Below are positions 7,881 through 30,188 of a DNA stretch of 64,000 nucleotides, in pieces. The stretch covers positions 736,001-800,000 of the forward strand of contig OZ243961.1 of NCBI GenBank assembly GCA_965214605.1. Reading direction: 5' to 3'. The position numbers and the translations under genes were made by a program. Positions within the stretch are counted from its first letter, which is position 1. The number at the start of each line of letters is the position of its first letter. A model generated the notes under the pieces. It was not told the origin of the DNA and ran no database searches. It worked only from the letters and a program-made list of their open reading frames with translations. Source of the stretch: an uncultured Candidatus Binatia bacterium. Lineage in GTDB: Bacteria > Desulfobacterota > Binatia > Bin18.

Positions 7881-9098
7881 CTAAATGACGCCTCGCTCGC
7901 TCAAGCGGACTAGCTCCTCGGCCTTCAGTCCGAGTAGATTCTGATACACCTCTTGATTGTGCTCCCCTAAAGCCGGCCCGACAGAACGCGCCGCCCCTGG
8001 CGTTCCGCTCAGCTTGGGCACAACGCCCTGCATGCGGATCGCACCGAGGAGCCGGTCGTGCAGACTGAGCACCATATCCCGCTCTTGGAAATGCGGATCA
8101 ATCGCAATATCGGCAATACTATTGACCGGCCCGGTTGGGATAATAGCGGCTTCAAGGCGTGGTAACAGGTCGGACAGCTCGTGTTCGGCCGTCCATCCGG
8201 CTACAATCGCGTCAATAGCGTCCCGGTTCTCGCCGCGCACCACAGCCGCTGCAAAACGCGGATCATCCAGCAGCTCTTCACGCCCCATAACTCGACACAG
8301 GCGGTCGAATAATTTATCGGAGTGGGCGGCAATAATAATCCATTTACCGTCCCGACACGGATACAGATTTGACGGAGCAAAACCGGGCAGGCTCGTGCCG
8401 GTCCGCGTCCGAATATGACCGGTTTTATCATACTCAGTCAGCGCCCCTTCCATCACCGCGAACACCGCCTCGTACAGGGCCGTATCAATGACCTGTCCAC
8501 GTCCACCATTCACATCCCGGTGATACAGCGCCAGCATAATGCCCAAGGCCGAGAACATACCGGCCAAGGAATCACCAATACTCACCCCAACTCGACTGGG
8601 CGGCCGATCCGGGAAGCCCACGCTGTAGCGCAGCCCACCAAACGCTTCTGCCACCGCGGCAAAGCCGGGCTTGTTTCGATTCGGTCCGGTTTGACCGTAG
8701 CCCGACACCCGGGCAAACACTAAACCAGGATTCCGCTCCCGCAGCACCTCATAGCCGAGCCCCCAGCCCTCAAACGTGCCGGGACGAAAGTTCTCCAGCA
8801 ACACATCGGCCTGAACAGCAAGCTTGCGCAGAATTTCTTGTCCTTCAGGCAGGCGCAGGTTGAGAGTAATACACTTCTTATTCCGGGCGATGTTTGGCCA
8901 CCATAAACTATGACCATCGACGAGCACCTGCCCAGTCGCACGCATGGGATCGCCCTGATTCGGCGGCTCAACCTTGATCACCTCTGCGCCAAAATCGGCC
9001 AGCAGCCTGGCACAAAACGGGGCAGCCAAAAGGACTCCACACTCAATGACGCGGATACCACTGAGGGGGCCGAAACTCGGGGTCGAATCAGCACTCAT
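7881..9098 (-). CDS. Family III CoA-transferase (formyl-CoA transferase-like)
   Basis: LADFGAEVIKVE, RNKKCITLNL, ENFRPG and SIGDSLAG motifs. Confidence 0.92.
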   Translation of the reverse strand: MSADSTPSFGPLSGIRVIECGVLLAAPFCARLLADFGAEVIKVEPPNQGDPMRATGQVLVDGHSLWWPNIARNKKCITLNLRLPEGQEILRKLAVQADVLLENFRPGTFEGWGLGYEVLRERNPGLVFARVSGYGQTGPNRNKPGFAAVAEAFGGLRYSVGFPDRPPSRVGVSIGDSLAGMFSALGIMLALYHRDVNGGRGQVIDTALYEAVFAVMEGALTEYDKTGHIRTRTGTSLPGFAPSNLYPCRDGKWIIIAAHSDKLFDRLCRVMGREELLDDPRFAAAVVRGENRDAIDAIVAGWTAEHELSDLLPRLEAAIIPTGPVNSIADIAIDPHFQERDMVLSLHDRLLGAIRMQGVVPKLSGTPGAARSVGPALGEHNQEVYQNLLGLKAEELVRLSERGVI

Positions 9099-21200: not shown

Positions 21201-24200
21201 TCACCATGTAAGGCGTGGCTTGTCGAGACGCTGCAGTACATCGAGTTTGGTAATGGGGTGTTGTCGAAGGCGTTTCAAAATCCAGGCGTGCTCATAGAGC
21301 TGAACTCCGTGGACTTTTGCGGCCCCTGCTCCCGGTTTGCCAATCTTCCTCGCATTGGTAAAGACGGCAAGTGTGGCAAAATCCTTGGCGAGATGATTGG
21401 CGTAGAATTTCCGAGACGCGTAAATCTCGCGGACAGAGGAGTCGTCCTGTAAAACCTCATGCTTTGTGTATTTGCACTGGGCAAGCTGATTTCCATGGGG
21501 AGAGATCAGCACGATATCGCACCCCTTATCATTGCCCGTAGGAGTAAGATGCACCTCTCCGTCAAACTCTCGGTAAAGAAGTTCCGCCACGAGCGCTTCA
21601 AACTGCTCCCACCCAAGCAGGTCCAGCTCCTTTTCTGAGAGAGGAGGAGCCGGCTGGACTGTTGACTGTCCAAAGACGTCGGTCTGCTGAAACGATTCAT
21701 GGGTCACAATTTCCGGCGCCACTATCGCGTCTTTGAGGTCGACCTTCTTTGTCAGAAGCCGATGAAGATGCAGGTCAAAGGAATCGTGCTCGGGATGGTG
21801 CAAAACCGGAATAAAAACACTCACATCTCTGTCCTGACCGATGCGATAAACCCGGTCGGTGGCCTGCTCCTCTTTGGCGGGATTCCAGTGGCGCTCGAGA
21901 TGAATAACGTTATTGGCTCCCGTAATTGTGAGACCTACCCCGGCTGCCACCGGCGAGATGATCAGTATTCCAAAGCCGTCACACGACTCAAATTGCTCAA
22001 TCAAGCCCCGGCGCGTCAACACGGACTGTCGTTTACCAACCGCCTTCGTATCGCCGTTGAGCACCTCCACGGGTATGGCGTAAATTTTCCCGAGCACATG
22101 CCTCAGGAAGACCTGAAGCCGCCTGTTGATGACAAAAATCAGGACTTTCTCTCGGCGCTCTCTAATTTTGTCCAACACGTTTAATACAACCGACAACTTC
22201 CCGGACTTCCCAGCTTCGGTCCGACACTCTTGAATCGTGGCCGGCGATGGCAGCTCTCCTCCCCCCAGGAGATCTGGATGTAGAGACACATCGCGCAGGC
22301 GCTGCAATCCCCTCAAGAGGTGCTCTAGTCCCGTCCCCTCAGCTATTCCCTGACGGGTGGCCTCGACGACCGTATTGTAGGTAGTGAGCTGTAGACCGGA
22401 CATGGTCCGGGCCAGATGAGGGGAATATTCCTGATTTTTGGTAGTGTCTCCGACACCAACGTACACCCTTTTTTTAGGTAATCCTTCCAAGTAGCCTTCT
22501 TTAGTCCGTCTGAGCATGAGCGCCCCAACGCGTGTCCGGAGCTGTTGACCAACCTCTTGTCGGATCTGCGGCAGAGCTTTACCGGCTCTCAACAACGGGC
22601 GTACGTATGTCTTCCGAAAATCCTGATAACTATCGAGCAAGCCGGGAACAGCCGTGTCGAAAATACACCAGAAATCTCTGAGTTGGTTCTCAACCGGCGT
22701 CCCCGTTACCATGAGTTTGAACTGTGCCTTTATGCCCTTGGCTGCTCGCGTCTGCATGGCGTTGGGATTTTTGATGTTTTGAGCTTCATCAAAAATGACA
22801 AATGACCAATCCACCTGGCACAGTGAGAACTGGTAGTTGGTCAGGGTGCTGTAATTGGTGATGACCAATCGCCTCGGGCTATCTAGGCGGTCGAGTCCGA
22901 ACTCTTCACCCACTTTTAGAGAGAGCAGTGCCCGTTGATTCGTCTCACCGTTCTCAAGAACAGCGTCATCCTCCCGCTCTCGGGCTTCGACGCCGCGACC
23001 TGGGAGGCGATAACGCTTAAGGTCGGCACCACCGTGCAGCGTAACCATATTGACAAAGGGCGAGGCGGCAAAGGTCTGCTCGACCTCTGCTTTCCAGTTA
23101 TCGAGAAGAGACAACGGGGCGACCACTAAAACAGGCTTTTGCACGACCCCGCGTACGGCGCACAGGCGGTAGTACTCCCCAAGGGCGACCAAAGCCGTAA
23201 AGGTCTTGCCCAGTCCCATGTCGTCGGCCAATAGACTCCCGAACAGGGATTCTTCATCAGAATGTTCAAGCGCCTGCTGTGAGAGGCCGACCAACCATCG
23301 GATCCCTCTCTGTTGATAGGGAAATGGCGACCGCTTGTAATCCTCCCACGCGAGTTCGCCCTGATAAAGATGTTTGTCAATCGTTGAGTCTATGTAGCGG
23401 GATTTTATATCAAGACGCTCGTCATTGGGGTGAACGTCGACAACGATCTTTGCCCGACTGCTCTCATCTTCTTCAGCCTCGGCCTGGCTCGGTTTTTTCG
23501 GAGAAACCTCGATGGCGCCCTGAGCCCGAAGTTCTCGTTCGAGTCCGTCGAGAGTACGCTCAACTACGTCCCGATTGGCAATCGAGATCGTCTGTTCCTT
23601 GAACGAAATCTCGTTGCCCCCGGCCTGAACGGCATCTTGCAGTCGTTCCCGAAATTCGGCAAGATCCGTCAAATCCTGGATCGCGCTGCCAAGACTCTCC
23701 ACCCCCAGAGGAGATCCAGACGTCTCAGCGCTTCCTCGATCCAACCAATCAATCCCCGATGCTTCCGTCTCACCGAAGTAGGCGTGTCTGAACTCTGCGG
23801 CGCCGCGCACTCGCGCGGAATAGCCGACATCCAGATCAACGAGGGTGACATCAAGGAACGCCGTTGGGGAGGCGAGGAATTGTTTGATATATTTCGCTGG
23901 TATGGAGCGGTTTTTAATAATTTCCTGAGTCGCCTTCAGGCGTTTCTCGTCGAGCAGGATAATTGTATCGCCAACCCGCAGGCTCTGGACCGTATCGTTA
24001 TCCGGGGCTATCTGACCTAGACGATTGGCAACCTGCTCGGCTGAAACGAGCCCCTCAAAATTCGGAGTGAGTTCAAGATCACCGTTTGCAAGCCGCTCAA
24101 GCGAAACCGACACTCGCTGCGGTTCTACCGTCTTGAGGTCGGTAAACTGACGCAAGTCGATGTCACAGCCGGCTTCAGCGGCTTTCTGGACATGCTGGAC

Positions 24201-24734
24201 GGCGAGCAGATTGCGGTATTCAGACCGCGCCCCATCCACCAGCGCCTGATGGTCGGCAACTGCCTTCAAAGCCAACCATTGGTCTGGGGATGGAAGATAG
24301 TGCTCGGTTTCGCTGAGGCGCAGAAAAGGACCTTCGAGGCGGTATGAAGCCGCCGTATCCCCGCTCGCCGTCCGCAGGCGCAGGCGGAGCCTAAAAGAGG
24401 GCTGGAAGCTGCTCCCCTGCGTCCTGAGTTCCAAGCTGCCAGGCCAGCTGTCGGGGAGTCCAAACAGCAAACGTAGGTCCGATTCCAGGTTGACCACGGT
24501 TTCGGGTTCCAACGCAAAGCCATTCGCAAACCGCTCGGCAAGTCCCTGCTCTTCGAGCACTTTAAAATGGGCATATTGCGTCAGTGATAGCTCACCACCC
24601 TTTCCGGACTCGCAATCGGCAAAGGCCTTCTGTGGCAGATAAAAGCTGACATCTTCTTTTTCTGCCCTGTACGAGAAACCCTCATCCTGGGAGTTTCTCT
24701 GCCACAGTGCCGCTATTCGTTCTCTGACGGACAT
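21201..24734 (-). CDS. zorD: Zorya ZorD: SNF2 helicase/ATPase with C-terminal Mrr-like nuclease
   Basis: LADDMGLGKT, DEAQ, TGTPVEN and HWNPAKEEQATDRVYRIGQ motifs; C-terminal FEALVAEL..DKGCD..AQCK; last gene of the zorABC operon. Confidence 0.9.
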   Translation of the reverse strand: MSVRERIAALWQRNSQDEGFSYRAEKEDVSFYLPQKAFADCESGKGGELSLTQYAHFKVLEEQGLAERFANGFALEPETVVNLESDLRLLFGLPDSWPGSLELRTQGSSFQPSFRLRLRLRTASGDTAASYRLEGPFLRLSETEHYLPSPDQWLALKAVADHQALVDGARSEYRNLLAVQHVQKAAEAGCDIDLRQFTDLKTVEPQRVSVSLERLANGDLELTPNFEGLVSAEQVANRLGQIAPDNDTVQSLRVGDTIILLDEKRLKATQEIIKNRSIPAKYIKQFLASPTAFLDVTLVDLDVGYSARVRGAAEFRHAYFGETEASGIDWLDRGSAETSGSPLGVESLGSAIQDLTDLAEFRERLQDAVQAGGNEISFKEQTISIANRDVVERTLDGLERELRAQGAIEVSPKKPSQAEAEEDESSRAKIVVDVHPNDERLDIKSRYIDSTIDKHLYQGELAWEDYKRSPFPYQQRGIRWLVGLSQQALEHSDEESLFGSLLADDMGLGKTFTALVALGEYYRLCAVRGVVQKPVLVVAPLSLLDNWKAEVEQTFAASPFVNMVTLHGGADLKRYRLPGRGVEAREREDDAVLENGETNQRALLSLKVGEEFGLDRLDSPRRLVITNYSTLTNYQFSLCQVDWSFVIFDEAQNIKNPNAMQTRAAKGIKAQFKLMVTGTPVENQLRDFWCIFDTAVPGLLDSYQDFRKTYVRPLLRAGKALPQIRQEVGQQLRTRVGALMLRRTKEGYLEGLPKKRVYVGVGDTTKNQEYSPHLARTMSGLQLTTYNTVVEATRQGIAEGTGLEHLLRGLQRLRDVSLHPDLLGGGELPSPATIQECRTEAGKSGKLSVVLNVLDKIRERREKVLIFVINRRLQVFLRHVLGKIYAIPVEVLNGDTKAVGKRQSVLTRRGLIEQFESCDGFGILIISPVAAGVGLTITGANNVIHLERHWNPAKEEQATDRVYRIGQDRDVSVFIPVLHHPEHDSFDLHLHRLLTKKVDLKDAIVAPEIVTHESFQQTDVFGQSTVQPAPPLSEKELDLLGWEQFEALVAELLYREFDGEVHLTPTGNDKGCDIVLISPHGNQLAQCKYTKHEVLQDDSSVREIYASRKFYANHLAKDFATLAVFTNARKIGKPGAGAAKVHGVQLYEHAWILKRLRQHPITKLDVLQRLDKPRLTW

Positions 24735-24785: not shown

Positions 24786-26282
24786 TTAGACGACACCGTG
24801 TCGGCGTCTGTATTCCCGGTAGTCCTTAGAGCTCAACACGTCCGAGGGATCAATAGACGTTCCTAATTCCTGCAATGTCTTTATAGCCTTATACTGCCAC
24901 CTAGCAGGCTGATGCGTGATCTCGACAACCCCGGTGTGTCCAAATTGAGACACATAATCTTCATACAGTCCTTTTCCTAAGTCGCGGTGGGGAATATTAT
25001 CGCGTTCATAATTCTCAATAGGATTACCCCGAGGAAGTCGTCCGTATATCCGCAAGGAGAAACTGTGCGTTCCCTCAACAACATACTTTCCGTCGATGTT
25101 GAGATAGATGACCGAGAGAGAGGAGTGCCGCACTCGAGAATAAGCAGGGATATCCTTGTTCCGATAATGACGCCGGACGTAATCTTGAGCCCGCCTGCCG
25201 AGAAACAGCCGCGCGTCTTTGACTAGCCGCTTCTCAAAAACTCCTTTGAGAAAGCGCTTACGCGATGGAAACATCCGTTTCAGATCAGGATCGGAACTCT
25301 GCTCCACATGGTCTTCAAGGACTTTGAGAAACAGCTCGATATCCATTCCCGAGAGCCACTGACGGACCTGCTTGACATATTTATCGCCTAGTATGGCCCA
25401 CCAGTGTCTGTAATTGACCGCCCCCTTACTCACCCGCGGATCGCCGGCAATGGATAAGATCACCCGGAGCCAGTTCTCCGGCATATCCTGGCGGCGGGCA
25501 GCCCGATCAACCATGACTTGAACCACCTTGTGCCCCAGCAACCAGTCGCTTTCATAGGCGCTTTCATAGATGTCTTTCCGCACCAGTTCACGTAGAACCT
25601 CGTGGTCTTGGCCAACCTGGAGTTCTTTCAGAGGAGCCAAATAGTAGATGTTCTTACACTTGGTGAAGAAGCGGCCGCCGCTTTCCATAGGAAGTCCAAG
25701 ACGAGACGCAATTGTTTCCAAGGGAAGGGCGTCCTTCCGGGCCTGCTCAACAACCCATGCCGGGCCATCGATGGAAAAGAGAGTCTCGGCGTGTTGGGCA
25801 AAGAGAGCGAGCGTTTGTGAGAACTTTCTGTCGGCGTTCAGCCGAAACTGTTCTCGGAGAAATTCGGCAAATGACCAAGTATCCCCAAGCTCATCAAAAC
25901 GGGCAAAAAAGAGCTGGGTGCAGGCAAACAGCACAAGCGGCGAGTATCTTTGACGTAACGCCCTCAAATGCTTAAGTGTGGCAGGGTCGATCGGGTTGCG
26001 CTTAACGCACTCTTCACACTCCTGCCATAATTCCACCAGCGGACGGACATCTTTGGGTGTCCGCACGACGTTTTGGATGCGCCGCCTCCGGTGCAACAAG
26101 CCGTGAATATGTTTCTTACGCTTCCTAAAGGCCTCGGAGTTGGTCCCGGCCGTGTGGGCAAGCCGTTCAAGTTTGCCGGACAGGGCTTGATAGTGTACCA
26201 CGTCCGCCCTACCGGTCTGCTTGGGCAGAGTAAAGTCCAGTCTGGCGAGGCTCAATCGGGGGAGCTTAATTGTCAAAGACAT
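24786..26282 (-). CDS. zorC: Zorya ZorC (EH-signature domain)
   Basis: W...ILSIAGDPR, FLKVLE, RMFPSRKRFL and VVEGTHSF...ITH...WQ motifs; sits between zorB and zorD. Alternative start at 26306. Confidence 0.88.
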   Translation of the reverse strand: MSLTIKLPRLSLARLDFTLPKQTGRADVVHYQALSGKLERLAHTAGTNSEAFRKRKKHIHGLLHRRRRIQNVVRTPKDVRPLVELWQECEECVKRNPIDPATLKHLRALRQRYSPLVLFACTQLFFARFDELGDTWSFAEFLREQFRLNADRKFSQTLALFAQHAETLFSIDGPAWVVEQARKDALPLETIASRLGLPMESGGRFFTKCKNIYYLAPLKELQVGQDHEVLRELVRKDIYESAYESDWLLGHKVVQVMVDRAARRQDMPENWLRVILSIAGDPRVSKGAVNYRHWWAILGDKYVKQVRQWLSGMDIELFLKVLEDHVEQSSDPDLKRMFPSRKRFLKGVFEKRLVKDARLFLGRRAQDYVRRHYRNKDIPAYSRVRHSSLSVIYLNIDGKYVVEGTHSFSLRIYGRLPRGNPIENYERDNIPHRDLGKGLYEDYVSQFGHTGVVEITHQPARWQYKAIKTLQELGTSIDPSDVLSSKDYREYRRRHGVV

Positions 26283-27012
26283 CCAATATCCCTTGGTATT
26301 CTTCAATGACGGGTTGTCTCACCGTAAAGCGCAGGTCGATACGCCGATTTTTGCGCCGCTTTTCATCCGTGTCGTCAGGTTCTTGCAGGCGGCGCGTCGC
26401 AGCATAGCCGCTGACCGAGAAAAGAGGCTTCCCTTGGAAATTCAGGAGAGTGGCAAGACCGTTGGAAGCTGCGCGTTCCTCGGTCCAGAAACGCCACACC
26501 TGTATCGCCCGGTTTGCGGATAATCCCCAGTTCCCGAGTTCAAGGGTCCGAGCAGGTCTGCTGTCGGTATGGCCCTCCACAAAAATCGTATCAAGAAATT
26601 TGTGGCGGCCATCCTTGAGTCTCCGCCGTAGAGCGCTGTTAAGCGTGTTGCCAATCGTATACACCGCGTCCTGTCTATCCGGGGGAATCTGATAGCTGCG
26701 AGTCTCAAAAAAGAGGTATTCATCAGGAATCCGCAGTACGGTCTTGTTATCGCTCACCTCAACCAGTATGCCATGCTCCTCCAGCTGCTTCTTGATCTCG
26801 TCAAGGAGGTCGGCGCGGTTCTTATTCGCCTCACTCAATTCTTGAATCGCCTGCTCAACGTCAAGCCGTCTTTTCTGAAGCTGAATAATAAACACCACCG
26901 ACGCCAAAATGAAAATCACCAACAGACCGGCCATGATATCGGAAAACGAAATCCAATAAGGATTCTCTTCGTCAACGTGCCGCCTGACATCGCTGGAGAC
27001 GCGCTGAAACAT
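26266..27012 (-). CDS. zorB: Zorya ZorB (MotB/OmpA-like peptidoglycan-binding stator subunit)
   Basis: YWISFSDIMAGLL TM segment with conserved Asp; VEGHTD, NWGLSANRA and NRRIDLRF OmpA motifs. Confidence 0.92.
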   Translation of the reverse strand: MFQRVSSDVRRHVDEENPYWISFSDIMAGLLVIFILASVVFIIQLQKRRLDVEQAIQELSEANKNRADLLDEIKKQLEEHGILVEVSDNKTVLRIPDEYLFFETRSYQIPPDRQDAVYTIGNTLNSALRRRLKDGRHKFLDTIFVEGHTDSRPARTLELGNWGLSANRAIQVWRFWTEERAASNGLATLLNFQGKPLFSVSGYAATRRLQEPDDTDEKRRKNRRIDLRFTVRQPVIEEYQGILDVFDN

Positions 27013-27017
27013 AGACC

Positions 27018-30000
27018 TTATCTCCTTCTCTCAATCTTGCCGTCCATCTCTTCGACAGTGCTGGCAAGAGAGACAACTGCCGCCTGCATAGCGTTTGTAT
27101 AATTCTGGGTTTGCTTGGTCCACTCGTTCAGACGGTCTTGGGTCTGTGTCTGCACTTGGCTCGCGTAGTCCCTCAGAAGCTGAGCGACCTGCTTTTGCAA
27201 CTGGTCAACATGCTCCTCGAGAGCCGCAAACAACTGCTGCTGATGCTGAGTGAGCTGAGTCGTCTGCCGGCGCGAGGCGTCTGCCGCTTCCGCGATTCTA
27301 TCAGCCGCGCTGGAGAGCATGTCCTTAAGACCGGTAATGACGCCAATCACCTGATTGATATTGCGACCCGTCGTCTCATTCTCCCTGGCAAGCCGCCGGG
27401 TTTGCTCCAACACTTGACCTAGGGCCCGGCCGAGCTGATCAACCCCCGACTGAAGCCGTTCAGACAGAGTTCGTAGTCCGCCGGAAGCGTTGTTCAGCAA
27501 CTCGCCGCCCGTCCGTATTGCCGAGGCAGATGTTTGAAGTCCTTCTGTAACCGCTGCGATCTGCTCATACAATCTCTGACTCTGTTCAAGAACCGTTTGC
27601 GAGGCCTGAATATGGCCATCAAACGAGGCGGCCCAGGCAGTCTCTCTGGCGTCCATACGCTGGTTCAGCGCCTCTAGAGCATCCATAAAGTGCGTCATTG
27701 AGCCGCCCCACTGACTAATGGCCGTCTTCACCTCCGCCGTTGTCGCCTCCATCATCTTCCGCTGTTGTTCGCCTTGACCTCTCAGGCCGTCGCCGAATTG
27801 TCCGACTGCTGTTTCCATCGTACTTGAATACTGTTCGGCCTGCTTAGTCCATTCACGCAGATGGGTTTGGGTCTGGGTCTGCGCCTGATCCACGTAATCC
27901 GCCACAAGCTGAGCGGCCTGCTGTTGCGACTGCTCAACATAGCGCGAGAAGGCGTCCTGCGAGGCCTGAATATGGCTGTCAAACGAGGCGGCCCGGGCAG
28001 TCTCTCTGGTGTCCATACGCTGGTTCAGCGCCTCTAGAGCATCCATAAAGTGCGTCATTGAGCCGCCCCACTGACTAATGGCCGTCTTCACCTCCGCCGT
28101 TGTCGCCTCCATCATCTTCCGCTGCTGTTCGCCTTGACCTCTCAGGCCATCGCCGAATTGTCCGACCGCTGTTTCCATCGTACTTGAATACTGTTCGGCC
28201 TGCTTAGTCCACTCACGCAGATGGGTTTGGGTCTGGGTCTGCGCCTGATCCACGTAATCCGCCACAAGCTGAGCGGCCTGCTGTTGCGACTGCTCAACAT
28301 GGCGCGTGAGGGTGTCCTGCGAGGCCTGAATATGGCCATCAAACGAGGCGGCCCGGGCAGTCTCTCTGGTGTCCATACGCTGGTTCAGCGCCTCTAGAGC
28401 ATCCATAAAGTGCGTCATTGAGCCGCCCCACTGACTAATGGCCGTCTTCACCTCCGCCGTTGTCGCCTCCATCATCTTCCGCTGCTGTTCGCCTTGACCT
28501 CTCAGGCCATCGCCGAATTGTCCGACCGCTGTTTCCATCGTACTTGAATACTGTTCGGCCTGCTTAGTCCACTCACGCAGATGGGTTTGGGTCTGGGTCT
28601 GCGCCTGATCCACGTAATCCGCCACAAGCTGAGCGGCCTGCTGTTGCGACTGCTCAACATGGCGCGTGAGGGTGTCCTGCGAGGCCTGAATATGGCTGTC
28701 AAACGAGGCGGCCCAGGCAGTCTCTCTGGCGTCCATACGCTGGTTCAGCGCCTCTAGAGCATCCATAAAGTGCGTCATTGAGCCGCCCCACTGACTAATG
28801 GCCGTCTTCACCTCCGCCGTTGTCGCCTCCATCATCTTCCGCTGTTGTTCGCCTTGACCTCTCAGGCCGTCGCCGAATTGTCCGACTGCTGTTTCCATCG
28901 TACTTGAATACTGTTCGGCCTGCTTAGTCCACTCACGCAGATGGGCTTGGGTCTGGGTCTGCGCCTGATCCACGTAATCCGCCACAAGCTGAGCGGCCTG
29001 TTGTTGCAACTGCTCAACATGGCGCGTGAGGGTGTCCTGCGAGGCCTGAATATGGCTGTCAAACGAGGCGGCCCGAGCGTTCTCTCTGGTGTCCATACGC
29101 TGGTTCAGCGCCTCTAGAGCGTCCATAAAGTGCGTCATTGAACCGCCCCACTGACTAATGGCCGTCTTCACCTCCGCCGTTGTCGCCTCCATCATCTCCC
29201 GCTGCTGTTCGCCTTGACCTCTCAGGCCGTCGCTGAATTGATGGACGAGATTCTCAAGAGCCTCGGCGCCGCCACGTGCCTGACGCGACGCGAGATCGCC
29301 CGCAGCCTGAGCAAGGGATTCCAGAGCGGGCTGCATGCCCTGCTGAATACCTTCGAAAACAGCGGATTGGACGTTCTGTGTCACCTGGTTGATTGTTTCC
29401 TGCATTTTATTGCCGATGCGTTCGGAAAGGCCGTCCAGAGCAATGGCGGCTTGACGAGTTTCCTCATGAACATGGACCAGCGTTTGTTCCGGACTGAGAC
29501 GCGGAAAGAGTGCGTCTATCTTATTCTGTAAGGTCGTAATCTTGTATCTGACGCGCTGTTCGACGGCTTTTTCGATCAGGTTGAAAACAAAGCTCAGGGC
29601 TACTCCCCAGACCGAGGTCTTAAAAGCGATAGAGGCCCCATCTATCAAACGGGTGATACTGGCCACATCCTCAGGATTGACGTTGGACAAACCCAGGAAC
29701 AGACCGGTGAAAGTCCCGACAACACCAATAGCGGTCAGGAATGCGGGAACAGCAGCGAGAAGGCGATTTTCCGTGATACCTCGCCCCAAAGTGTGCGCAT
29801 TAAAGAAATGGGCGGCATCATAGGTATTCTGGATTCGCTCTTCACCTTTGGACACAACGAAGGTCTCGTCAAACTCCTCCCAGAGCTCACCCAGTCGCTT
29901 GTTGCGCTGCTGCCGGGCCTGCTGCTTCAGATCCTGACGTTTGTCCATCAGACTATCCGGTTTAAGCCCTCGGAGAAGTTTGCGGAAGAACGCTGTCGAC

Positions 30001-30188
30001 CTCCAAGAGCGACCCCAAGCCCAGAACACCCAGAGCAGAAAGCAGCCAAAGAGCAACCATAAGACGTAGATAAAAAGAGAACTTATCCCTTCCGAGGTCA
30101 CATCGCCGCTGAGCAAGCCGCTGAGCAAGGCGAACGGTTCAATTTTTGGTAGGAGATCATAAAAGTCAAAAGTGATTTTATCCTCCAT
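27018..30188 (-). CDS. zorA: Zorya ZorA (MotA-like TM domain plus long helical cytoplasmic tail) with internal 120-aa repeats
   Basis: Three TM segments; AHFFN..TL, LTAIGVVGTFTGL and AFKTSVWG motifs; roughly 800-aa coiled-coil-like tail; upstream of zorBCD. Confidence 0.92.
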   Translation of the reverse strand: MEDKITFDFYDLLPKIEPFALLSGLLSGDVTSEGISSLFIYVLWLLFGCFLLWVFWAWGRSWRSTAFFRKLLRGLKPDSLMDKRQDLKQQARQQRNKRLGELWEEFDETFVVSKGEERIQNTYDAAHFFNAHTLGRGITENRLLAAVPAFLTAIGVVGTFTGLFLGLSNVNPEDVASITRLIDGASIAFKTSVWGVALSFVFNLIEKAVEQRVRYKITTLQNKIDALFPRLSPEQTLVHVHEETRQAAIALDGLSERIGNKMQETINQVTQNVQSAVFEGIQQGMQPALESLAQAAGDLASRQARGGAEALENLVHQFSDGLRGQGEQQREMMEATTAEVKTAISQWGGSMTHFMDALEALNQRMDTRENARAASFDSHIQASQDTLTRHVEQLQQQAAQLVADYVDQAQTQTQAHLREWTKQAEQYSSTMETAVGQFGDGLRGQGEQQRKMMEATTAEVKTAISQWGGSMTHFMDALEALNQRMDARETAWAASFDSHIQASQDTLTRHVEQSQQQAAQLVADYVDQAQTQTQTHLREWTKQAEQYSSTMETAVGQFGDGLRGQGEQQRKMMEATTAEVKTAISQWGGSMTHFMDALEALNQRMDTRETARAASFDGHIQASQDTLTRHVEQSQQQAAQLVADYVDQAQTQTQTHLREWTKQAEQYSSTMETAVGQFGDGLRGQGEQQRKMMEATTAEVKTAISQWGGSMTHFMDALEALNQRMDTRETARAASFDSHIQASQDAFSRYVEQSQQQAAQLVADYVDQAQTQTQTHLREWTKQAEQYSSTMETAVGQFGDGLRGQGEQQRKMMEATTAEVKTAISQWGGSMTHFMDALEALNQRMDARETAWAASFDGHIQASQTVLEQSQRLYEQIAAVTEGLQTSASAIRTGGELLNNASGGLRTLSERLQSGVDQLGRALGQVLEQTRRLARENETTGRNINQVIGVITGLKDMLSSAADRIAEAADASRRQTTQLTQHQQQLFAALEEHVDQLQKQVAQLLRDYASQVQTQTQDRLNEWTKQTQNYTNAMQAAVVSLASTVEEMDGKIERRR
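27599..29240. repeat. Tandem repeat, 360-bp unit, about 4.5 copies, inside zorA
   Basis: gaggcctgaatatgg recurs at 27601, 27961, 28321, 28681 and 29041; copies differ by only a few substitutions and stay in frame. Confidence 0.98.

Follow-up and report, generated by a model that had tools for sequence, protein, structure and literature searches.

What lengthens the cytoplasmic tail of a Zorya motor protein, and does the added length mean anything for defense? These questions are raised by zorA in a 64,000-nucleotide window of DNA from an uncultured Candidatus Binatia bacterium (assembly GCA_965214605.1, contig OZ243961.1, forward-strand positions 736,001 to 800,000; coordinates below count from the first letter of this window). 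The gene encodes a ZorA of 1056 amino acids (aa), and a large part of its tail is a 1.6-kb array of near-identical 360-bp units. Our conclusion, to which we give a probability of about 0.75, is that the locus is a type I Zorya system whose ZorA tail grew longer when a native 120-residue module was recently amplified in tandem. The gene, the array and the parts of the tail are as follows.

27018..30188, minus strand: zorA, 1056 aa, a MotA/ExbB-like motor (about aa 30-235) followed by a long helical tail
27597..29240, minus strand: the whole tail-module array, aa 317-864, with a 360-bp (120-aa) unit
28881-29240, minus strand: unit u0, full copy in gene register
28521-28880, minus strand: unit u1, full copy in gene register
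28161-28520, minus strand: unit u2, full copy in gene register
27801-28160, minus strand: unit u3, full copy in gene register
27597-27800, minus strand: part copy u4, the first 68 codons (X part only)
27075..27437, minus strand: tail tip module, about aa 918-1038, carrying the family-conserved tip motif

Tandem Repeats Finder (TRF) delimited the array at 27598-29240, with a period of 360, 4.6 copies, 97% matches, 0% indels and a score of 3083. The array lies in frame within the zorA open reading frame (27018-30188, minus strand), and at 97% identity over 1.6 kb it is far beyond chance. An initial annotation, made from the letters of the window, had described about 4.5 in-frame 360-bp copies in a 1056-aa zorA and had singled out the units starting at 27961 and 28321 as differing at about 2 positions; TRF gives nearly the same copy number without indels, and in registers counted along the plus strand these two units differ at exactly 2 positions, neighboring registers at 12 and 10. 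In the register of the gene, the six pairwise comparisons among the full units u0-u3 gave 14, 14, 16, 6, 10 and 8 differences in 360 bases. A search of the 9-contig assembly with the unit found five places, all in the array on contig C1 and at 96-98% identity, and no unit match on the other 8 contigs. Of the 22 sites that vary in the array, 13 are non-synonymous and 9 are synonymous. Unit u3 (27801-28160) carries four non-synonymous changes within 13 nt, at unit positions 208-220, which turn DTLTRHV into DAFSRYV in this unit only; either a small conversion tract or clustered mutation might account for them.

Each unit consists of a segment X (68 aa, QF[SG]DGLRGQGEQQR...ASQ) and a segment Y (52 aa, DTLTRHVEQ...TAVG). 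X opens with the family-conserved motif F..G.G..G..QR, and Y resembles the tail tip. The motif at the start of X is near-invariant in ZorA1, with F318, G321, G326, M333 and F354 each conserved in at least 90% of 58 aligned sequences. To place the array in its family, we used a word-indexed protein search in which 8000 candidates were scored and 195 proteins reached E <= 0.001; the best 120 of these 195 were taken further. A loose pattern for the glycine (Gly) motif matched once in 86 of the 120 and not at all in 27. At least two matches were found in the clade of this gene only: two in five proteins, three in the protein P0002 and five here. Pairwise BLASTP aligned the unit to the C-terminal 192 aa at 35% identity over 122 columns (E 3e-19), and the tip module, the last ~120 residues, is thus an old paralogue of X and Y taken together. 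Across 117 relatives, conservation is 0.59-0.65 at the tip, among the better kept parts of the tail, and 0.18-0.28 at the end of X and in Y, which are the least conserved.

The closest relatives carry the same module in different numbers. P0002-P0009 are 60-70% identical to this protein in the best local alignment, and P0002-P0008 are 72-78% identical over the full-length alignment. A scan of species-representative genomes added four further loci (L004-L007), in records titled Candidatus Binatia bacterium. Whole-genome searches matched 2 of 41 relatives (G000 and G005); G005 is congeneric and has the same SGL gene upstream of zorA. Together, 13 distinct clade proteins from Candidatus Binatia metagenome-assembled genomes form the following series.

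4.6 copies: this gene (P0001), 1056 aa
2.6 copies: P0002, 812 aa
1.6 copies: P0003-P0009, L002 and L005, 692-694 aa (P0009 is truncated at 598 aa)
0.6 copies: L006 and L007, 572 aa and 573 aa

Between fixed flanks, the middle part of these proteins measures exactly 79, 199, 319 or 559 aa. Most orthologues (9/13) have the modules as X-Y-X', the 1.6-copy form. The array is an amplification of a module that was already duplicated in the ancestor, and not a new type of insertion. The comparison of repeat number among orthologues that the initial annotation had called for thus yielded 0.6, 1.6, 2.6 and 4.6 copies, and several independent events. All other ZorA relatives among the best 120 of 195 are 589-875 aa long. 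A separate 12-bp tandem duplication (30105..30129, minus strand, 2.1 copies by TRF) lies near the 5' end of zorA and adds LLSG, such that aa 21-28 read LLSGLLSG; the N-terminal flank has 305 aa in this protein, against 301 aa in 10 of the 11 relatives compared. With these 4 aa, the length of the protein is accounted for as 1056 = 692 + 360 + 4. P0009 (598 aa) ends early, in ...FLQRC where its relatives have ...FSGAAD, and is without the tail tip; it is a truncated or frameshifted clade ZorA.

We also searched more widely. A metagenome scan gave 12 loci, of which only one, a partial (L025, 62%), belongs to the clade, and no further copy-number variants. In a sample of the phylum, the ZorA1 profile PDLC00601 matched 6 of 401 genomes, with frames of 531-787 aa against 1079 here, too few for a length distribution. 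A search of the representative library with one unit returned only 19 proteins at E <= 0.001; outside the clade the matches, 24-48% identical, fell mostly in the tip region of ZorA. One weak match (28% identity, 9 stretches), P0124 (886 aa), has about nine near-identical repeats of ~75 aa; on reading its sequence, with no family-library scan made, no ZorA motor region was recognizable.

We built a maximum-likelihood tree from the concatenated flanks of 12 clade rows and the outgroup P0010, leaving out the truncated P0009. P0002 (812 aa) is sister to the 692-aa orthologue of G005 with support of 98/99, and the flanks of these two proteins share 97.8% identity, with 11 of 493 aa differing. L006 (572 aa) has a 692-aa group as its sister (97/98), and for L007 (573 aa) the sister is a 694-aa pair (94/87). 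Because the 1.6-copy form is present in all groups, the simplest history has two losses and two gains, and the flank tree points to about four independent changes in module number.

We then typed the modules at 14 diagnostic positions that separate the first (F) from the last (L) X in the 1.6-copy proteins. The extra X of P0002 scores 9 F and 4 L, the first type, and all five X copies of the present gene score 9-10 L and 2 F, the last type. The single X of L006 is an F/L chimera, the reciprocal product to be expected from a crossover between X and X'. In the 1.6-copy genes, X and X' are 63-74% identical in DNA and share identical runs of 10-57 nt, which suffices for homologous exchange now and then. 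Within the array, unit variants are shared as a mosaic (u1 with u4, u2 with u4), and in the X part 6 informative sites yield 8 incompatible pairs; together, these patterns point to gene conversion or crossover among units. The array most likely grew by unequal homologous recombination, first between the two X copies that were already present and then between whole units, accompanied by a degree of gene conversion.

Synonymous (dS) and non-synonymous (dN) divergence were estimated by the Nei-Gojobori method. Pairs of full units have a dS of 0.039-0.110 and a dN/dS of 0.20-0.46, a ratio that rests on 3-9 changes per class and pair. The flanks, compared with G005, have a dS of 0.54-0.57 and a dN/dS of 0.19-0.28. 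Since dS is lower between units than between flanks, the array arose well after the two congeners separated, yet early enough for its 22 variable sites to accumulate; it is young but not brand new. The ratios suggest purifying selection after duplication, and an array that is probably translated under constraint.

The gene sits in a complete type I Zorya operon, zorABCD. The product of zorA matches the PADLOC profile ZorA1 PDLC00601 with an E of 7.1e-203 and Pfam PF01618 (MotA_ExbB) with 27.7 bits (cut-off 22.9); among structures in the PDB it matches 8vvn ZorA (E 4.5e-74) and 8qyd (E 6.1e-08). The other three genes follow.

26266..27012, minus strand: zorB, 248 aa, with an N-terminal membrane helix, an FSD motif and an OmpA-like peptidoglycan-binding domain
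24786..26306, minus strand: zorC, 506 aa, an EH-signature protein
21201..24734, minus strand: zorD, 1177 aa, an SNF2-type helicase with a C-terminal Mrr-like nuclease domain

ZorB is supported by PADLOC ZorB1 (E 1.9e-92) and Pfam OmpA PF00691 (E 3.6e-10). Its N-terminus contains YWISFSDIMAGLLVIF, and we take the role of the acidic Asp from MotB. ZorC is matched by Pfam PF15611 (E 7.7e-68) and PADLOC ZorC1 (E 1.1e-137). ZorD is matched by PADLOC ZorD1 (E 0, 1223.9 bits), by PF00176 (E 1.3e-44), by PF00271 and by PF04471 (23 bits, cut-off 21), and it has the motifs GLGKT at 507 and DEAQ at 649. The four genes lie on the minus strand in the order zorA-zorB-zorC-zorD, with a 5 bp gap between zorA and zorB, a 41-bp overlap of zorB and zorC and a 51 bp gap between zorC and zorD, and their best PADLOC matches are ZorA1, ZorB1, ZorC1 and ZorD1. 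The assignment to type I made in the initial annotation is borne out by these matches and by the complete operon. We considered a defense-island or mobile-element context and rejected it, as the neighbors are metabolic genes (aldo-keto reductase, SGL lactonase, CoA-transferase, SDR, acyl-CoA dehydrogenase). In all four related Binatia loci zorBCD are full length. At one of these, L004, the match to zorB (8085-8827) is split into two parts that are read in different frames and adjoin near 8303-8309, which could be a frameshift or an assembly indel. The intact operon and a dN/dS below 1 between units together indicate that the long ZorA is probably still made and used.

We asked how the added modules would fit into the tail. 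The repeat lies where the initial annotation had put it, in the cytoplasmic helical tail. The tail has zero prolines after aa 287, and its hydrophobic periodicity peaks at 3.64-3.66 residues; with a hydrophobic repeat of 3.64 residues, 120 residues make ~33 turns. As the X-Y and Y-X junctions pre-exist in the 1.6-copy form and a unit makes ~33 turns, added units would lengthen the pentameric bundle without a new seam. The 18 nm per unit first calculated, 120 aa at 0.15 nm, is arithmetically correct, and the E. coli ZorA, given as about 730 aa, has 729 (8qyd). In E. coli, the tail measures ~700 A over residues 223-729, which implies 0.138 nm per residue (PMC11946911). Placing the start of the tail near aa 240, by alignment to 8VVN, which makes it about 816 residues long, and using 0.138-0.15 nm per residue, we estimate that each unit would add ~17-18 nm to a helical pentameric tail. 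The whole tail would then reach ~113-122 nm, against ~63-70 nm in the 692-aa relatives and E. coli. In an AlphaFold2 model of the monomer, each unit forms one helix of ~93-116 residues, briefly interrupted at the Gly motif; the helices, of 93-147 residues, are H328-440, H469-561, H568-681, H686-801, H806-902 and H909-1055. A four-copy complex prediction of aa 437-676 (two units) gave no verdict (score 0.00 against a mark of 0.32, with an uncertain partner fold and no folded controls); the assembly of type I Zorya is ZorA5B2, with a pentameric tail.

Several observations weigh against this account of a lengthened tail, beside the small number of changes behind the dN/dS of the units. We compared short-read contig sets from the runs X1, X2, X5 and X6, the last of which covers parts of the stretch only. 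In all four runs, every contig piece listed ends inside the array and none spans it, so that the figure of 4.6 copies rests on the assembly alone. The runs X1, X2 and X5 hold a form of u0 with T>A at 29080 and T>C at 29090, and the variant base at 29080 is in none of the five assembled copies. X1 and X2 contain two forms of 29050-29110, each at about flank depth, and X5 the variant form only; the short-read flanks show 0 differences from the assembly. Either arrays differ between genomes with identical flanks, or the assembled array is inexact at the level of the unit. Confidence in the AlphaFold2 model is low (mean predicted local distance difference test score, pLDDT, 62.9; tail ~50-67), and its helix breaks fall at FGDGLRGQG, such that the tail could be hinged or folded back and gain less than 17 nm per unit. 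By analogy to the E. coli truncations that kill defense, an extension might also impair Zorya.

Some of these points would be explained if the array were mis-built and the real gene had fewer or more units. This explanation draws on the lack of a spanning record, on the short-read contigs that all break in the array, and on the unit variant in the reads that is missing from the assembly. Yet the array lies inside a ~4.3 Mb contig of a 9-contig genome, each unit has its own pattern of differences with the frame kept, and a 2.6-copy form occurs in an independent assembly. Read depth also argues for repetition: it is 155.8-315.5 inside the array and 68.9-77.1 in the flanks in X2, and 175.7-210.6 against 82.2-95.8 in X1, which fits several copies, although depth is no copy number. 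We consider an assembly artefact very unlikely. We give equally little credence to a loss of function, in which the expansion would disable ZorA and the operon would be decaying. Its main support is that every change of tail length tested in E. coli, four truncations, abolished defense (PMC11946911). The present operon speaks otherwise: its four genes are open and full length with the catalytic motifs present, and the dN/dS of 0.20-0.46 suggests translation under constraint since the duplications.

A different question is whether the number of modules matters. The initial annotation had proposed a tail of tunable length acting as a contingency locus. In its strict form, with high-frequency switching of copy number in the population as a bet-hedge against phages, this idea has in its favor the long direct repeats at 96-98% identity, the signs of exchange among units, a one-unit gain between proteins with 97.8% identical flanks, the differing repeat number among the 13 clade proteins, and the unit variant found in short-read runs whose flanks match the assembly exactly. 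However, the units have diverged by 6-16 substitutions, with a dS of up to 0.11, where frequent unequal exchange should homogenize them, and the contig pieces listed from the four runs contain no joints inside the array that would mark other joined forms (contigs drop rare variants). The part of the proposal that stands is that module number varies among orthologues; the 6-16 differences and the dS of 0.039-0.110 argue against constant rapid turnover, and a true contingency locus is highly improbable. A neutral or mildly harmful length polymorphism, in which the mid-tail tolerates the gain and loss of modules, which recombination between X copies would produce from time to time, and their number has no adaptive meaning, is a fairly plausible reading that we would still place short of probable. 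It agrees with the position of the variable modules in the least conserved, indel-rich region of the tail (0.18-0.28; the tip has 0.59-0.65), with the mid-tail duplications that other ZorA1 lineages have of their own (21 of the 120 listed proteins score at least 170 in the scan described below), and with the retention of 1.6 copies in 9/13 clade members. Three observations fit it less well but are still compatible with it: a dN/dS between units as low as that of the flanks, the intact operon, and the persistence of shortened and lengthened forms alongside complete zorBCD. Amplification of the native module by recombination remains our preferred explanation for the array itself, and the sequences of the relatives suggest that module number is an evolutionarily labile, quantized trait of this clade.

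We examined whether mid-tail duplication is a wider property of ZorA, using an ungapped offset scan of the best 120 of the 195 proteins; the maximum over 20 shuffles was 42. Scores of at least 170 were reached by 21 of the 120 listed proteins, 12 of them outside the clade. P0076 has a mid-tail duplication with a 148-aa offset and 78% identity, and P0026, P0028, P0037 and P0060 have duplications with a 69-aa offset and 56-70% identity. These distant ZorA1 relatives, together with P0046 and P0117, have mid-tail duplications of their own, with 40-aa and 29-aa periodic stretches among them, and many ZorA1 proteins of 670 aa show a weak 51-aa periodicity at aa 300-400. The mid-tail of ZorA is thus generally built from repeats. 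The present protein is set apart by how many copies it has, by how alike they are and by its overall length.

Two ZorA proteins of known structure provide close reference points. The ZorA of Shewanella sp. ANA-3 (PDB 8VVN, 696 aa) comes from an operon that is also zorABCD; aa 31-454 here, the motor and tail base, align to its residues 25-449, and the tail tip, 860-1052 here, aligns to 503-695. Compared with 8VVN and the E. coli protein 8QYD (729 aa), the present ZorA is ~330-360 aa longer, the excess being three extra 120-aa modules in the mid-tail, and it has five copies of the Gly motif where each of these proteins has one. The 692-694-aa Binatia proteins (P0003-P0008, L002 and L005) are closer still, with 72-78% identity, the X-Y-X' module, the same flanks and the same operon. 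They differ in having 1.6 copies, with X and X' diverged to 63-74% identity in DNA, whereas the 4.6 copies here are 96-98% identical and have X of the last type throughout.

Near-identical in-frame repeats whose number changes through recombination are familiar from bacterial surface proteins and classical contingency loci. In those cases the proteins are surface antigens on which immune selection acts, or the repeats are short and work as on/off switches. The ZorA array differs from both in being cytoplasmic, in belonging to a defense system and in having 360-bp units. Another parallel in form is YscP, which serves as needle ruler in the injectisome of Yersinia and in which repeat number varies between strains and protein size is linear with needle length (PMC3469391). 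YscP and ZorA are both elongated proteins with a length that varies by the number of internal repeats. YscP, however, is an unrelated secreted ruler with repeats of 14, 25 and 46 aa, whereas ZorA is a membrane-anchored signaling tail.

Our literature search on the ZorA tail and its repeats found no report of tail repeats or copy-number variation; the length-distribution figure of Hu et al. and the supplements lay outside this search. Hu et al. infer from their four truncations, all of which abolish defense, that tail length is functionally important, and the length experiments in the available portions of that study are truncations, with no extensions among them (PMC11946911). [quoted passage not shown]

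In the published model, the tail would carry the signal of the activated ZorAB motor to ZorC and ZorD. If this model holds, a longer tail would bring the tip farther into the cytoplasm, along with four additional tip-like Y segments and Gly motifs. Tail length, or how many Y segments and Gly motifs line the tail, might be a selectable, quantized parameter of Zorya, with modules of exactly 120 residues gained and lost by recombination, that sets the reach or the number of sites for engaging ZorC and ZorD or allows escape from phage proteins that bind the tail. We regard this extension of our conclusion as unlikely on present evidence. If the long allele is inactive, the finding would be only a curiosity of repeat evolution.

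No part of the Zorya mechanism is less well understood than the role of the ~70-nm tail of ZorA. Within one narrow clade, we find tails that differ almost two-fold in length, in steps of a 120-residue module, alongside complete operons. If these alleles are active, they would provide a ready-made, structurally seamless series for testing whether the tail serves as ruler, torque shaft or docking scaffold. The series also shows that recombination inside a gene can alter the architecture of a defense system. Should module number prove to be a selectable parameter, the Binatia proteins of 572, 692, 812 and 1056 aa would make up a natural set of rulers within an immune sensor.

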